64,000 nt of DNA from Methanosuratincola petrocarbonis (lineage in GTDB: Archaea > Thermoproteota > Methanomethylicia > Methanomethylicales > Methanomethylicaceae): positions 1,253,005 through 1,317,004 of the forward strand of contig CP130488.1 in assembly GCA_030522375.1 (NCBI GenBank). The letters are read 5' to 3'. A program made the position numbers and the translations under genes. Of the stretch, positions 4,847 to 10,704 are shown piece after piece (the first letter of the stretch is position 1; every line of letters starts with the position of its first letter). The notes below the pieces were generated by a model. The model had not been told where the DNA came from. It saw only the letters and a program-made list of their open reading frames with translations, and did not search any database.

Positions 4847-5872
4847 ATGGCCGAAATGACGCCGCGTAAACGTGCCCTTCTTTGCGTCACAGGCAACAAA
4901 AAGCGGGCGGACAGGATAAGCTGCATGGACACTCTGACCACAGCAACAGTCGAGCAGATGAATGCAGTAAACGCGCCATTCCCTGAGGCGAACAGGGATC
5001 CGCAGCTTGCTTTCAAGCTCGCAGCCGCTGCCTGGGAGGTAATAGGGCTAGAGGGTTTCAAACTTCCTTTCGATCTCTGTGTCGAAGCAGAGGCGTTCGG
5101 GTGCAAGATTAATTGGGGGAGGATAGACAGGCACCCCAGCGTGGAGACGCATGCATTTAATGACCTGAAGGATCTCAAGATTCCGGAGAACATCGTTGAG
5201 ACCGGAAGGTTCCCGCTGAAGCACAGGGTCGAGGAGATGCTCAGGAAGGAGTATGGCGACTACCTGCCCGTGATCAACCAAGTTACGGGACCTTTCACGG
5301 TAGCCGGGCACATCTTCGGTATTGAGAAGTTCTGCATATGGACCAAGAAGAGGCCGCTTGAGGAGGTCAAGGAGGCGCTGATGCGCATATCAGATATGAA
5401 CGTCGATGACTGCAAGATAGCACTACAGAGCGGTGCCGACGTGGTCTGCATCGCGGACCCCTCTGCGACCTCGGACATCCTGTCTCCACAGTTCTTCAGG
5501 GACGTTATGGTCCCAGTATACCAGAACATGGCAAGGAAGATCGGGGCGCCAGTAGTGCTTCACATCTGCGGCAACACTTCGGCTTATCTGCCCTACATAG
5601 CGGACACCGGGTTCGACGCATTCTCGATTGATGCTCAAGTCGATCCCGCGTTTGCAAAGGCTATCGTGGGCGACAAGATAGCAATAGTCGGAGGCGTGCC
5701 GACAATTACTGCGCTGCTGTTCGGCACTCCTCAGAAGGTCAGGGAGGCGGCTGTCGACGCTATCAGGAAGGGAGTCGATGTGCTGATGCCCTCCTGTGGA
5801 ATACCCCCGAGGACTCCGACTGCGAACTTCAAGGCGATGGTCGAAGTAGCAAGATGCATGGTTTATGTGTGA
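4847..5872 (+). CDS. mtaA: MtaA/MtbA-family methylcobamide:CoM methyltransferase (UroD fold)
   Basis: LPFDLCVEAEAFG, GPFT, IADP; Zn ligands LHICG and PSCG. Confidence 0.85.
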   Translation: MAEMTPRKRALLCVTGNKKRADRISCMDTLTTATVEQMNAVNAPFPEANRDPQLAFKLAAAAWEVIGLEGFKLPFDLCVEAEAFGCKINWGRIDRHPSVETHAFNDLKDLKIPENIVETGRFPLKHRVEEMLRKEYGDYLPVINQVTGPFTVAGHIFGIEKFCIWTKKRPLEEVKEALMRISDMNVDDCKIALQSGADVVCIADPSATSDILSPQFFRDVMVPVYQNMARKIGAPVVLHICGNTSAYLPYIADTGFDAFSIDAQVDPAFAKAIVGDKIAIVGGVPTITALLFGTPQKVREAAVDAIRKGVDVLMPSCGIPPRTPTANFKAMVEVARCMVYV

Positions 5873-5882
5873 GGTGTTAGAG

Positions 5883-6557
5883 ATGGCAACTAGAGAGGAA
5901 ATCATAAACGGATTTGTAAAGGCTATAGTCGACGGGGACGAGGCGGCTGCTGCCAAGTGGGCGAACGAAGCGGTCGCGGCGAAATTGGACGCATACGAGC
6001 TTGTGACCAAGTACGGCGGCGACGCAATGAGCGTTGTGAACCAGAAGTACGAGAAGAAGGAGTACTTTGTCCCCGAGGTCCTCTGCTCTGCGAATGCGCT
6101 GAATGCCGCAGTGGAAGTGCTCACTCCCCACATGAAGGCTGACAAGACCACTGTGCCTGCGAAAGTGGTCCTCGGAGTGGTCGAAGGAGACATCCACGAC
6201 ATAGGGAAGAACTTGGTCAAGATCATGCTCAGCGCTGCGGGATTCAACGTCATTGACCTAGGCAAGGATGTGCCGCTGGCGAAGTTTCTGGAGACTGCGA
6301 AGGACAACAAGGCAGAGGTCGTCGGTATGTCTGCGCTGATGAGCACAACGATGCCGGCGATGAAGAAAGTGATTGACATGTTCGCCCAAGCAGGGGTCAG
6401 GAACAAGGTCAAGATAATCGTCGGAGGCGGCCCAGTAACCGAGGAGTGGGCACTGTCGATAGGCGCAGATGCAAGGCCTCACGATGCTTCAGCAGCAGTG
6501 GGAGTCACGAAAGATCTAGTGGCTAAGCTGAAGCAGGATCCTTCGAGTGCCTGGTAA
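5883..6557 (+). CDS. Methyltransferase cognate corrinoid protein (MtaC/MtbC/MttC family)
   Basis: VEGDIHDIGKNLV (DxHxxG), SALMSTT, VGGGPV; ATG 5883 after a GAGGTG RBS. Confidence 0.92.
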   Translation: MATREEIINGFVKAIVDGDEAAAAKWANEAVAAKLDAYELVTKYGGDAMSVVNQKYEKKEYFVPEVLCSANALNAAVEVLTPHMKADKTTVPAKVVLGVVEGDIHDIGKNLVKIMLSAAGFNVIDLGKDVPLAKFLETAKDNKAEVVGMSALMSTTMPAMKKVIDMFAQAGVRNKVKIIVGGGPVTEEWALSIGADARPHDASAAVGVTKDLVAKLKQDPSSAW

Positions 6558-6594: not shown

Positions 6595-6802
6595 CGGTTA
6601 ACCTTTTCCGCGCAGATCCCCCAAAGGCTGCAGGAAAGAGGCCGGGTTTGGAACGGGGGCGCAGAGAAGATCAAGATGAAAATTGGATTGAGCCTCTGAA
6701 AGTGCTTCAGAAACCATCCATTTTACTTACTATTTTGTTCATTTGTAGAACAGGAACACTTAAATAACATACTTGTTAAGCTTTAATGAGAACTTTTTGG
6801 TA

Positions 6803-7162
6803 GTGACATTATTGAAAAAGACAAAAGTCGATAAAAACGCTTTCCATGGATTAGATTTGCCAGAGCTGGAACAAATCAGGAAGCGGATGGCAAGCGATCC
6901 TTCGCTGGAGGAACGTCTTAAAAAGGATTTTCATGGCACCCTTAAGAAAGAGGGGATCAAGGTAGACAGCGCCTTTAGGGACAAGGTGATGGAGAAGCTG
7001 AATTCGAAAGTGAGGGCAGATCTGAGGGAGATTGTCGCGAAAAGGCCAGAGGCTAAGAATTGGTACCTGAAACGCGTTTTGGAAGGGAAGCCATTGAAGA
7101 TACATGTGCACATAGACAAGGAGACGGGCAGATGCGAGAAGTCGCTCGGAGGCGGGGGCTAA
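6803..7162 (+). CDS. Hypothetical basic helical protein, translationally coupled to the next gene
   Basis: Open frame with protein-like composition; stop overlaps the next ATG (TAATG); start uncertain (6773, 6803 or 6812). Confidence 0.7.
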   Translation: MTLLKKTKVDKNAFHGLDLPELEQIRKRMASDPSLEERLKKDFHGTLKKEGIKVDSAFRDKVMEKLNSKVRADLREIVAKRPEAKNWYLKRVLEGKPLKIHVHIDKETGRCEKSLGGGG

Positions 7163-8736
7163 TGCAAACGGGAGGATACGACGTTGTCTTGGAGTTAAGG
7201 GAAGAGCTACTGAACAAGTTCATGAAGGTTGGCCATTGCATTGGTGCATTCCCAGTTCTCAAGGGGACTTACACGCTCCCAATCCCCAATGTGCCTGACA
7301 GCCTGAAGGAGTTCACAGTGATAGGGTACGAGGTCTCCCTTCCGAAGCCCCCGACAATCGAAGCCACGGCAGATCTGCACTTGCGGATGAATGTGAGGGG
7401 GCAGGCGAAGTTCACGGTGCTTGGGGGTATAGAGTTTGAGATCGAAGTCGAGTTCACCGTGGGGGTCGCCCCGTCTTTCGACCAGGCAACCCGCAGGCTC
7501 AAGATCGACCTGTTGAGCGCAAGCATTGACGACGTCGAGCTGAACGACACTTACCACCTCCCAACTAATGTGATAGCCAAGCTGAATGAGATACTGACGA
7601 TCGCCATGCACGAGTACTTGACAGAAGATCTCACTACCCTGGAGCTGAGTCCGGTCCTATTCGCCACGGAGCTCCCGGATATGCCAGCAGGGGAAGAGAA
7701 CAAGCTAACCATCGGTCTGGGGAATTTCCGCGTCTTGAACCCTTCCACACTGTGTGTCGCAGTCAACTTGCTCGGCTACAACGGCGGTGACATCAACACG
7801 GTCTTGGACTTCACAGATGGGAGCCATATCGGCGTAGGCGTCAACGAAGGGGCAATGCACAGAGTTTATGATTTCTGGTGGGACAGGACGACGCACCCAA
7901 AGTCGGTCACTAAAACGGGTAGGCACGACTTCGACATGCCCTCGATAGTTGACTGGCTGGACGAGCTAGCCGACTGGGTGGTGGCTGCCTGCACGCTTGG
8001 CATTGTCAGCACTGAGATAGATATAAAGCGTGTCTGGGCGGAGTTCGGGGCCACAATAAGGTTCAGCAAGTTTGACTTCGACCTGAAGCCTGGGAATGTT
8101 GTGGAGATCGCAGGGAGCGTCTCGATCGACGCTTGGATGAGGGCGCTAATCACGATACAGACCACAACCTCGCTTTTCTGGGGGCTCTGGGACGTCGACA
8201 CAGAGACCTACACCGGGGAGATATTCAGCCTCTCCGTCAACAACATGGTCATCGACATCGACTCGGCTTCTGCAAAGGTTTACTTGGACGACAAGAATCA
8301 GCTCGTCGTTGACATACTTGACCTAGACATCTCTATACCGCTCGACTGGGAGATACCCGAGTTCCTGCTGAACTATTTTGTCAACTGGCTTATAGACAGG
8401 ATAGTAGAGAACTTGCCGCCGATCGTGCTCTTCCCTGCAGTCATTGAAGAGAGCCTGCCGGGTACCACAGTGAAAGTCAAGGCGACATTCACCAAGCTCT
8501 TAATCGATGAGCCAGAAGCCCTTGTTGCCGCAAACATAGAGACTTCAGGCATTGGAGCGTATGCACCATATGTGGCAAACAAGTCCCCCGAGCACATGGA
8601 GGTCCACAAGAAGGATTGCGAGTGGGCCCATAGGATTGCCATCAGGAACAGGGTCTATTTCTGTGACCTTGAGGAAGCCCTTGCGTCAGGCTACGATGGG
8701 TGCAGGTACTGTATGCCCGAGCACCACCACAGGTAG
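7162..8736 (+). CDS. Hypothetical 524-aa protein: probable two-lobed TULIP/P47-like beta-rich body with C-terminal Ada-type metal-binding domain
   Basis: ATG 7162 after GGAGG; N-terminus MQTGGYDVVLELREELLNK; C-terminus VHKKDC...NRVYFCDLEEALASGYDGCRYC matches the Ada Zn-domain pattern. Confidence 0.75.
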   Translation: MQTGGYDVVLELREELLNKFMKVGHCIGAFPVLKGTYTLPIPNVPDSLKEFTVIGYEVSLPKPPTIEATADLHLRMNVRGQAKFTVLGGIEFEIEVEFTVGVAPSFDQATRRLKIDLLSASIDDVELNDTYHLPTNVIAKLNEILTIAMHEYLTEDLTTLELSPVLFATELPDMPAGEENKLTIGLGNFRVLNPSTLCVAVNLLGYNGGDINTVLDFTDGSHIGVGVNEGAMHRVYDFWWDRTTHPKSVTKTGRHDFDMPSIVDWLDELADWVVAACTLGIVSTEIDIKRVWAEFGATIRFSKFDFDLKPGNVVEIAGSVSIDAWMRALITIQTTTSLFWGLWDVDTETYTGEIFSLSVNNMVIDIDSASAKVYLDDKNQLVVDILDLDISIPLDWEIPEFLLNYFVNWLIDRIVENLPPIVLFPAVIEESLPGTTVKVKATFTKLLIDEPEALVAANIETSGIGAYAPYVANKSPEHMEVHKKDCEWAHRIAIRNRVYFCDLEEALASGYDGCRYCMPEHHHR

Positions 8737-8744
8737 TCAAACCA

Positions 8745-8758
8745 TTTTTTTCCTTTTT
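8745..8758 (+). terminator. T-tract terminator of the two-gene operon
   Basis: TTTTTTTCCTTTTT 8 nt after the stop codon. Confidence 0.55.
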
Positions 8759-8977: not shown

Positions 8978-9325
8978 CTAAATGATTGCTAAAAACGCAA
9001 AGCCGAGCAGAGCCAACACTATGCCGATGATTATGAAGACAACGACTGTCACTATTGCGATCAGCAATGCCTTGAGCCACCCGCAGTCAAAGAAGTGCTT
9101 GATCAGTGCGAGCCAGATTATCAGCATGATTATGGTGCCAATCAGCCCCAATTCGAAGTAGCCGAATATCGCGCCGACAATAGTTCCGATCACGACGATC
9201 CAAATCGCATCAGTGAACTTAGCCTTGTCTTTGCCGACAAGCCACCTACCCACAAGCCAGAGTACTGGGGACAGAAAAATTACGCTGACAACTAGGTTTA
9301 TTAATACAGAAACCAAGTCCGCCAT
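8978..9325 (-). CDS. Small hypothetical membrane protein (about 4 TM)
   Basis: 115 aa, four hydrophobic segments, ATG start. Confidence 0.8.
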   Translation of the reverse strand: MADLVSVLINLVVSVIFLSPVLWLVGRWLVGKDKAKFTDAIWIVVIGTIVGAIFGYFELGLIGTIIMLIIWLALIKHFFDCGWLKALLIAIVTVVVFIIIGIVLALLGFAFLAII

Positions 9326-9882: not shown

Positions 9883-10704
9883 TTAGAATGGTGCAAATAT
9901 GCCGATGAAAACCAGCCAGGCCAGGATTGTTTTCGCCACCAGGCTCAGTAAGATGTAGACCCTCTCGCCGCGGGGGTAGTCTTTCCACTTGCCGATCCCC
10001 TTGTACTGGAGGAGCATGTTGATAGAGAATGTGTTGAACATTACGAAGTAAAGGACGAGAACCAGATAGACGAATGTCGGTGGGCTTGTGTCGGTTGAAT
10101 TCAGAGCGGCAACAAAGTAAGCTGCTGTGACCACCCACGGGGTGAAGCAGGAGATGCAGCCCAACAGATAGGGAGACCAATCGATCTTCTTCGTATACTG
10201 GTTGATCTTCTCCATCAGGTAACCAAACATTATCATCATGGCATTCAGTACGAAGATCATGATGAGGGACCGCAAATCCCAGACCCCGATGAATGTCGCC
10301 AATATCTCGAGCATGATCGAGCTGGAGAACGCATACTCATACCAACGATAGGGGTTCATCCCTCTTTTTAGGTACTCATTGTATTGCCTGGTCCTTGCAA
10401 ATGCGATAATCATGTGGGCGGCAGCCGAGATCAGCAAGAACGACGCCAGTAACGCCCCCAGATATGTGATTGTGAAAGCCTGGGGATTTGGCACGACTTG
10501 GAATAGGAGGGGTAGACGGGATTACTTCGAACTTGAGGTAAAAGGTGTAAATGTCCCGCTCCCACGTTAAGAGGGTGTGCCTAAAGCCAGCATGAGTATC
10601 CCCTGCACCAAGTGGAGGGTCCCGGTACCAATGTTCAATTTCCTGAGGCTTTCCATGGTTATTGGGGATTTCGAGATCAGCTTCCTTTTCAAATCATTGT
10701 CCAT
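9883..10704 (-). pseudogene. heR: Heliorhodopsin, interrupted by two compensating frameshifts (about 10575 and about 10505)
   Basis: TM1 LNIGTGTLHLVQG; SAAAH; NPYRWYEYAFSSSIM; LQYKGIGKWKDY..GERVYILLSLVAK (retinal Lys). TAA stops at 10569-10567 and 10524-10522; an alternative frame between them reads LLTWERDIYTFYLKFEV. Confidence 0.9.

Follow-up and report, generated by a model that had tools for sequence, protein, structure and literature searches.

Within the 64,000-nucleotide window analysed here (Methanosuratincola petrocarbonis, contig CP130488.1, positions 1,253,005 to 1,317,004 of the forward strand), I identified a pair of overlapping genes that encode a predicted BPI-like double-TULIP protein with an Ada-related zinc module at its C-terminal end and, directly upstream, a small basic partner. 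The TULIP gene (7162-8736, forward strand) gives a stop-free translation of 524 amino acids. It has 62 full-length homologues and a dN/dS of 0.05-0.08 within the genus, indicative of strong purifying selection, and is therefore not a chance ORF. Members of the family share 63-69% identity across phyla, yet every named database entry is a hypothetical protein and none carries a Pfam domain. What would such a pair do? The reading that I favour, with slightly better than even confidence, is that the TULIP protein carries lipids or other hydrophobic ligands inside the cell, is paired with an adapter and ends in a zinc docking knob.

The case for the TULIP fold is structural. The AF2 model (pLDDT 80.1, pTM 0.72) contains 47% strand and 23% helix, and in both lobes the order of elements (strand-helix-long strands-long helix-strands in the N-terminal one) fits the TULIP pattern, in which a strongly curved antiparallel sheet wraps a long helix. 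The eleven best Foldseek matches in the PDB are all TULIP proteins (probability 1.0) and include BPI (E 3.8e-16), LBP (1.9e-14), CETP (4.7e-13), P47 (2.2e-9), OrfX1-OrfX3 (3e-9) and OrfX2 (1.5e-5), with YceB (1.9e-4) coming after; YceB (TM 0.53-0.55) and BPIFA1 are matches to a single lobe. Over the whole protein, the TM score of the predicted model to BPI is just 0.42-0.46 at an rmsd of about 11 A, which leaves it uncertain how the two lobes of the model are oriented towards each other. The N-terminal lobe (residues 1-215, 7162-7806) and the C-terminal lobe (residues 216-465, 7807-8556), both on the forward strand, were delimited by the model, the Foldseek matches and their likeness to each other, which hhalign recovers with a probability of 97.9% and an E of 5.6e-13 over 187 columns. 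By this alignment the lobes are homologous, the outcome of an internal duplication that yields a pseudo-dimer. GGYDVV (4-9) and GSHIGV (220-225), each of which begins the strand-helix element at the start of its lobe, are aligned with one another, and the most conserved motif of the family, GVxExAMHRVYDFWW, lies in the C-terminal lobe. The initial annotation had described, from the letters alone, a beta-rich, two-lobed TULIP protein with two similar starts, and the model and the lobe alignment bear out all of this.

The likeness to BPI and P47 is visible by fold only, since neither the family scans nor the sequence searches of the PDB returned either of them. Pfam and NCBIfam scans of the 524-aa protein gave only a sub-threshold Ada match. 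Among PDB sequences, phmmer and hmmsearch recovered nothing beyond marginal matches to Ada and matches to ureidoglycolate hydrolase, HNH and stomatin that were rejected as spurious. LBP_BPI_CETP (PF01273/PF02886) did not match the protein at E<=1 and matched one of 59 relatives below threshold (E 0.0026), two of the 59, both distant members, gave weak DUF1439/YceB matches, and Pfam P47 matched neither the protein nor any of the 59, so that the proposed membership of the P47 family is not supported at the level of sequence. A library of viral structures contained no TULIP match. Judging from the modelled fold, the TULIP protein would bind a lipid or another hydrophobic ligand.

Where would it do so? 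The protein has no transmembrane segment: averaged over 19 residues, its Kyte-Doolittle score peaks at 1.41. Signal peptides, lipoboxes and transmembrane anchors are absent from all 59 divergent family members. In all 59 distant representatives the N-terminal motif MxTxGYD is kept and starts within residues 1-8, without a leader. Being leaderless, the protein is probably cytoplasmic, in agreement with the first description. It is also very acidic, with a net charge of about -37 and a pI of 4.1-4.7. Anionic membranes would be expected to repel a protein with a net charge of -30 to -60, which counts against the carrier model.

The remaining residues, 466-524, form the zinc module and run with the TAG stop from 8557 to 8736 on the forward strand. 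Its four putative ligands, H482 (8605-8607), C486 (8617-8619), C514 (8701-8703) and C517 (8710-8712), are invariant in 26 of 26 aligned homologues at 37-68% identity, as expected from the C-terminal His-Cys motif noticed earlier, and the region has a pLDDT of 81-89. The ligand spacing, H482-x3-C486-x27-C514-x2-C517, is that of C38/C42/C69/C72 in Ada. Among PDB sequences the tail profile matches those of Ada structures best, and in HMM alignments to Ada N-terminal structures C486, C514 and C517 fall on Ada C42, C69 and C72. The assignment as an Ada-type tail stands, with a qualification as to the Pfam scan: Ada_Zn_binding scores only 11.5 bits for the whole protein and 16.4 bits for the isolated tail against a cutoff of 23, whereas relatives with tandem copies, which the family profile picks up by the tail alone, reach 99-115 bits (best E 1.4e-33). 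DUF6233 matches the 524-aa protein below threshold. Two of the tandem relatives, P0127 and P0141, match the NCBIfam family 'sunset' (NF051437) at 25.0 and 29.6 bits (cutoff 27); the tail of the 524-aa protein itself does not. A stand-alone viral copy of 64 amino acids in the structure library is 44% identical and superposes at an rmsd of 0.8 A. The module probably holds zinc. It is missing from 15 of the 59 family representatives, which keep both lobes.

In Ada, Cys38 is the nucleophile that accepts the methyl group from DNA methylphosphotriesters. At this position all 26 homologues, and every tandem-domain copy inspected, have His. The idea of methyl sensing, put forward in the initial annotation, fails on this invariant His, and as far as sequence can tell the tail belongs to a His-Cys3 branch of the Ada module, unable to accept a methyl group. 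The variant at issue is a methyl sensor or acceptor, similar to Ada, with a functional tie to the adjoining methyltransferase and corrinoid genes. Just upstream, in the same orientation, there are indeed genes for a URO-D family methyltransferase (4847-5872) and a B12-binding protein (5865-6557), and the tail is Ada-related, but this adjacency was not seen in Methanoperedens, Methanospirillum, Methanocellales, Brockarchaeota or the other loci inspected, and the neighbouring methyltransferase genes are not kept outside the genus. Even in M. petrocarbonis an AT-rich gap of 250 nt with its own TATA-like box parts the corrinoid-protein gene from the TULIP pair. The suggested functional tie to the methyl-transfer genes thus falls as well, and a methyl sensor, largely refuted, is scarcely credible.

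The Ada N-terminal domain also binds the DNA backbone, which brings in a second role for the tail: together with the Lys/Arg-rich, helical partner it could bind DNA or RNA, on a scaffold for nucleic acids or the ribosome whose TULIP shell has lost lipid binding. Sunset-type tails on ribosomal proteins would fit such a scaffold. However, the 15 representatives that dispense with the tail, a highly acidic body that disfavours contact with nucleic acids, and a partner that matches no DNA-binding family all speak against it, and I consider it very unlikely.

The company that the module keeps elsewhere raises the question of export. In P0127 an array of tandem HCCC modules (with the same one His and three Cys ligands) follows a signal-peptide-like N-terminus, and in P0171 and P0208 the module ends proteins made of domain types usual on cell surfaces; the cell-surface-type domains joined to it are CarboxypepD_reg, Big_12, RicinB and an S-layer-like region. 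Because of these three proteins, a cytoplasmic location cannot be read from the zinc module. The TULIP protein might then leave the cell by a non-classical route or sit on its surface, its body handling hydrophobic substrates outside and its zinc tail serving as an envelope anchor, which is feasible because the hosts named in the source records (anaerobic archaea, Dehalococcoidia and Clostridia) are anaerobes. BPI, LBP, CETP, YceB and TipA, furthermore, all act outside the cytoplasm (PMC5507252). Against export stand the complete lack of signal peptides, lipoboxes and membrane anchors among the 59 members and a conserved fold that begins at residue 2-8. P0199 joins the module to an N-terminal transmembrane helix with flanking K/R residues, and the positive-inside rule would place that module inside the cell. 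NCBIfam also lists 'sunset' forms of L20, S2 and L4, ribosomal proteins that are cytoplasmic. Export therefore seems distinctly unlikely, and for the TULIP protein I retain a probable intracellular location.

The second gene of the pair, overlooked in the initial annotation, encodes a partner of 116 amino acids (6812-7162, forward strand). Its TTG start at 6812 was picked by homology, MKKTKVDK... resembling the MKRVKVDK... of relatives. Reading of the sequence places a candidate archaeal TATA box (TTAAATA, 6760-6766, forward strand) in the intergenic gap, about 45 nt 5' of this start. The partner and TULIP genes share a stop/start overlap, TAATG (7160-7164, forward strand), which indicates translational coupling of the two. 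Downstream, runs of T7 and T5 (8745-8758, forward strand) may form an archaeal oligo-T terminator, and the gene that follows (8978-9325) runs the other way. The locus is best read as a self-contained two-gene operon.

This arrangement recurs: the partner lies directly upstream of the TULIP gene in 18 of 27 loci, one of them in a Clostridiaceae genome, never more than 16 nt from the TULIP start and usually with an overlap of 1-4 nt, overlaps of 1 or 4 nt being common to most relatives. All-vs-all clustering of the flanking ORFs of the 27 loci found the partner only and no third conserved gene. As an exception, a 378-aa protein is encoded downstream in three closely related loci that lack the partner. 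The partner is under selection as well (dN/dS 0.07-0.29), and its pairwise distances correlate with those of the TULIP protein (Mantel r 0.82, 0 of 2000 permutations). It is basic (pI about 9.8, net charge +10) and rich in Lys and Arg, opposite in charge to the TULIP protein, and these features together are consistent with a physical complex of the two proteins. The partner is predicted to form five helices and a C-terminal beta hairpin, in a mediocre AF2 model (pLDDT 70, pTM 0.41), and has no family in Pfam or NCBIfam and no fold match in the PDB. In 2 of 19 members, residues 18-50 give a sub-threshold match to the NHLP clan (E 0.05); an origin from a RiPP-leader-like peptide is an unproven lead.

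Of 301 genomes in the phylum only 6 carry the pair, and seven sister genera lack it altogether; phyla, even domains, are intermixed in the tree of the TULIP family. Patchy spread and a mixed tree together indicate horizontal transfer among anaerobes, and the earlier suspicion that the gene was acquired horizontally is upheld. Cultured strains with the family are Methanosuratincola petrocarbonis, Methanospirillum stamsii and Methanocalculus chunghsingensis. So sporadic and transfer-prone a spread suits accessory or conflict genes better than a role in core lipid homeostasis, and this too weighs against the carrier model. BPI perturbs bacterial membranes, and OrfX/P47 proteins are thought to act likewise or as toxin escorts in clostridial clusters. 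The pair might accordingly be a horizontally spread weapon or defence, in which the TULIP protein perturbs membranes or escorts a toxin and the basic partner is its inhibitor or activator. Such a conflict module would account for the patchy distribution and for a compact two-gene cassette whose neighbours vary between loci. P47 and OrfX are among the fold matches, ranked after BPI, LBP and CETP, and, like the family described here, P47/OrfX proteins are described as leaderless; the tandem paralogues that the family has in Clostridia recall the OrfX genes. However, none of the loci inspected has a toxin, secretion-system or defence gene next to the cassette, and PADLOC gave no match. The membrane-active lobe of BPI is cationic, unlike this strongly acidic protein, and the purifying selection on the TULIP gene, with the identity retained across phyla, is unlike that of fast-evolving conflict genes. 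I therefore regard a conflict module as unlikely.

On the carrier model, lipids or other hydrophobic molecules would sit in hydrophobic cavities inside the two TULIP lobes, and the protein would take this cargo through the cytoplasm or up to the inner membrane face; in M. petrocarbonis the membrane lipids are archaeol and tetraethers. The basic helical partner, translated from the shared mRNA in a coupled manner, would act as an adapter, binding the acidic TULIP protein and gating or targeting it, and the zinc module would be a structural docking knob with no methyl acceptor. In its boldest form, which is tentative and on balance improbable, the pair would be the first intracellular archaeal lipid-transfer machine, an acidic double-TULIP shuttle for isoprenoid ether lipids or hydrophobic precursors that is gated or targeted by its adapter and docked through zinc.

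No such BPI-like family is known to have been described in archaea, almost no archaeal lipid-carrier proteins are known, and next to nothing is known of how archaea move ether and tetraether lipids from where they are made to the membrane. The TULIP family is a concrete candidate for this movement. With it, the predicted BPI-like double-TULIP architecture comes to include leaderless proteins from Clostridia and from anaerobic archaea, and its tail defines a putative His-Cys3 branch of the Ada zinc module. The TULIP literature examined does not mention an archaeal member, and Wong and Levine found TULIP dimerisation in prokaryotes to be then without evidence (PMC5507252). If the present assignment is true, leaderless prokaryotic tandem-TULIP pseudo-dimers would make this architecture older than the eukaryotic BPI/CETP and SMP proteins.

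How does the pair compare with known systems? The tail shares with the zinc domain of E. coli Ada (1adn, 1eyf, 1u8b, 1zgw, 1wpk; PF02805) the ligand spacing of x3, x26-27 and x2 and the motif ...EAlaaGy.pC..C, but its first ligand is His in place of the methyl-accepting Cys38 and no AraC or AGT domains are attached; DUF6233 and 'sunset' (NF051437) are related families. YceB/DUF1439 (3l6i) matches a single lobe (E 2e-4) and is a single-TULIP bacterial lipoprotein, lipid-anchored in the periplasm (PMC5507252). P47 and OrfX1/2/3 (5wix, 8bgm, 8fbd, 8fbf, 9arj), from the neurotoxin gene clusters of clostridia, are prokaryotic TULIP proteins with fold matches of 2e-9 to 1.5e-5, and in Clostridia side-by-side paralogues are common to the OrfX/P47 clusters and the bacterial branch of the present family. 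Nevertheless, they match less well than BPI and lack the zinc tail, and there is no toxin cluster at the loci studied here. The best full-length fold matches are BPI, LBP and CETP (1bp1, 4m4d, 2obd; E 4e-16 to 5e-13), which likewise consist of two pseudo-symmetric lobes of about 200-250 residues derived by duplication. Against these, the archaeal protein shows about 11% identity, with no detectable sequence similarity or Pfam match, and differs in its strong acidity, its zinc tail, its operonic partner and its want of a signal peptide, CETP/BPI proteins being all extracellular (PMC5507252). Finally, TipA and TipB of Bdellovibrio bacteriovorus are a BPI-like double-TULIP protein and a small adapter, encoded in an operon in which the genes overlap by 4 nt; lipids are bound by TipA, whose TULIP fold is opened by TipB (bioRxiv 10.1101/2025.09.09.675085). 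TipA is secreted via a signal peptide, whereas the archaeal TULIP protein is leaderless, and TipB, a beta-sandwich encoded downstream, bears no resemblance to the helical, basic partner encoded upstream, a point against the carrier model. The archaeal pair would be a second and unrelated case in which a TULIP protein has its adapter in the same operon, the adapter role being proposed, and TipA/TipB, likened by description and not by sequence, is its closest functional analogy.

The open frame at 7162-8736 (forward strand, 524 codons) is a genuine gene. When 5.8 billion proteins were searched by word index, 62 homologues of its product came up, nearly all 510-540 aa long, and its dN/dS within the genus is 0.05-0.08. 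The nearest protein records, at 95-96% identity, belong to Candidatus Methanosuratincola. None of the 62 homologues contains a Pfam domain, every named one is annotated as hypothetical, and the family is covered by no Pfam or NCBIfam model. An AlphaFold2 model with a 26-sequence alignment of homologues as input (mean pLDDT 80.1, pTM 0.72; 23% helix, 47% strand) supports the two-lobed TULIP fold proposed in the initial annotation, which had named BPI, P47 and OrfX2. Its top Foldseek matches in the PDB are exclusively TULIP proteins: BPI (E 3.8e-16), LBP (1.9e-14), CETP (4.7e-13), P47 (2.2e-9), OrfX1-OrfX3 (about 3e-9), OrfX2 (1.5e-5), YceB (1.9e-4) and BPIFA1 (SPLUNC1; 4.3e-3). Over the whole chain the TM-scores are moderate (0.42-0.46, rmsd about 11 Å), as one would expect of an elongated protein with two lobes at an uncertain angle; single-lobe matches reach 0.53-0.55. 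The "two similar starts" noted earlier are a genuine internal duplication, since profiles of residues 1-215 and 216-465 align with each other (probability 97.9%, E 5.6e-13), beginning with T3-G-G-Y-D against T218-D-G-S-H. In sequence this kinship is nearly invisible: a Pfam scan of the protein matched none of BPI, P47 and DUF1439, and 59 distant relatives gave weak matches to DUF1439 in two cases and LBP_BPI_CETP in one.

The tail, residues 466-524, contains H482, C486, C514 and C517, all invariant across the 26 aligned sequences. The best, though weak, PDB sequence match of the tail profile is the N-terminal domain of E. coli Ada (E 0.17-0.38), whose Cys42, Cys69 and Cys72 align with C486, C514 and C517, respectively; H482 therefore takes the place of Cys38. 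The protein itself scores only 11.5-16.4 bits against Pfam Ada_Zn_binding, below the threshold of 23, but an exhaustive HMM search with the family profile found many proteins that match the tail alone, often in 3-6 tandem copies, and these score Ada_Zn_binding at 1.4e-33 and 1.1e-28 and also match DUF6233 and the NCBIfam 'sunset' domain. The first ligand is His in all tail-type tandem copies examined. Given the ligand alignment and the matches of the tandem relatives, the tail belongs, judged from sequence, to the Ada/sunset superfamily as a His-Cys3 member.

The Ada-type zinc tail of the initial annotation thus survives as regards ligand spacing and relatives, but not as a methyl acceptor. 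Ada takes up the methyl group on its nucleophile, Cys38; with His in that position, the module cannot act as Ada does. This contradicts the earlier suggestion of a methyl sensor, as does the genomic context: overlapping frames for a URO-D family methyltransferase (MtaA/MtbA type) and a B12-binding corrinoid protein lie upstream at 4847-6557 (forward strand), but such genes do not sit beside the TULIP gene and its partner in the examined loci of other taxa. I consider methyl sensing extremely improbable; the two genes fit the organism's methyl-reducing methanogenesis and are unrelated to the pair.

The His-Cys3 module is found in very varied contexts. Large proteins with surface-type domains carry it at their C-terminal end, one protein (P0199) has it after an N-terminal membrane helix, and it also occurs as arrays behind a signal-peptide-like N-terminus. 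Several proteins (P0127, P0141, P0143 and others) carry 3-6 tandem Ada/sunset-type modules separated by low-complexity linkers, and the N-terminus of P0127 is signal-peptide-like. That the TULIP protein is itself a surface protein, exported non-classically, seems quite improbable: the fold begins M-x-T-x-G-Y-D, with no leader, in 59 of 59 full-length representatives examined. No stretch of the protein has membrane-segment hydrophobicity (top 19-residue Kyte-Doolittle mean 1.41). The module is also attached to ribosomal proteins (NCBIfam 'sunset variants'), makes up a 64-aa viral protein on its own, and is missing from 15 of 59 TULIP family representatives. A scaffold associated with nucleic acid is very improbable for a protein with a net charge of about -37.

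The initial annotation overlooked a second gene, at 6812-7162 (forward strand; 116 aa, TTG start set by homology), whose end overlaps the TULIP ATG by one base, at 7162 (TAATG). Of 27 loci examined, 18 have a counterpart of 99-118 aa immediately upstream. It stops no more than 16 nt from where the TULIP gene starts, usually with an overlap of 1 or 4 nt; hosts include Bathyarchaeia, Methanoperedens, Methanosarcinaceae, Methanothrix, Methanomicrobiales, Methanocellaceae and one Clostridiaceae genome. No other conserved neighbour was found in the genes flanking the 27 loci. The partner is basic (pI 9.4-10.4 in 18 of 19) and the TULIP protein acidic: of the 26 aligned homologues, all but three have a pI of 4.1-4.7. 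The partner diverges faster (mean identity 33% versus 55%), and pairwise distances of the two genes are correlated (Mantel r 0.82, 0/2000 permutations). Its model has five helices and a C-terminal hairpin (pLDDT 70) and no fold match in the PDB; a family scan gave only a sub-threshold NHLP-clan echo. A putative TATA-like box (6760-6766) precedes the two genes and putative terminal T-runs (8745-8758) follow the TULIP stop. Beyond, on the reverse strand, a very hydrophobic 115-aa ORF (8978-9325; FLSPVLWLVGRWLV..., LIGTIIMLIIWLALI...) with no Pfam family found probably encodes, given that hydrophobicity, a small multi-helix membrane protein, and a heliorhodopsin gene (9883-10494; Pfam E 6.5e-80) looks N-terminally truncated or broken, because its match starts only at profile position 49.

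Within the phylum, the TULIP gene was found in 6 of 301 genomes, five of the same genus and one of another family, and in none of seven sister genera. Copies from Bathyarchaeia and Methanoperedens are 63-69% identical to this protein. A maximum-likelihood tree puts the Methanosuratincola copies with a Bathyarchaeota/Methanothrix pair (SH-aLRT 95) and one Clostridiaceae copy with those of Methanocellaceae (SH-aLRT 100); Methanoperedens is represented in both major clades. Given this patchy distribution, high cross-taxon identity and mixed grouping, the simplest reading is that the gene has spread horizontally among anaerobes, in agreement with the acquisition first proposed. In one same-genus genome (G056:C6:38858-40427) it is split between overlapping frames for residues 1-351 and 339-524, which suggests a frameshift, either true decay or an assembly error.

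A profile search places 233 representatives in the wider superfamily at E<1e-10, some through the zinc tail alone. Besides the partner-TULIP layout seen here, some loci have the TULIP gene alone. A small subgroup of these has a conserved 378-386-aa gene directly downstream, in a Brockarchaeota assembly (L004 3892-5028) and in genomes labelled Nitrososphaerota and Methanoperedens (L030 3797-4954, L031 2748-3902); a Pfam scan of the L004 copy found no family. Hemopexin repeats occur in 4 of 59 relatives scanned (P0087, P0114 and P0134, of 746-765 aa; locus L039 3808-6093). P0087, P0114 and P0134 keep the conserved N-terminal start, and in P0087 four repeats (E 8e-41) precede the C-terminal TULIP lobe and zinc tail. 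In Clostridia (Pseudobacteroides cellulosolvens, L041 5001-8456; Dehalobacter sp. DCM, L042 5001-8448) there are tandem double-TULIP paralogues of 539-540 and 602 aa, both with the His-Cys3 tail and without the small partner, which resemble the adjacent TULIP paralogues of clostridial OrfX clusters. A role for the pair as a conflict or membrane-attack module is nevertheless unlikely.

I lean towards the view that the TULIP protein carries lipids or other hydrophobic ligands inside the cell; the basic partner would serve as its adapter and the zinc tail as a docking knob. Ligand binding, a partner-TULIP complex, zinc occupancy and localisation are inferences. The membrane lipids of M. petrocarbonis LWZ-6 are archaeol, GDGTs and GMGTs (PMC12244365). 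The TULIP reviews and the remote-homology study consulted list the bacterial YceB, P47, OrfX2 and DUF4403 and do not mention archaea. A double TULIP that lacks a leader, ends in a His-Cys3 tail and has a helical partner is a new combination. Its nearest functional precedent is TipA/TipB of Bdellovibrio, in which a small operonic protein clamps and opens a BPI-like double TULIP (bioRxiv 10.1101/2025.09.09.675085). Both systems join a small protein to a double TULIP in one operon, but TipA/TipB is secreted and its small member, TipB, is an unrelated beta sandwich.
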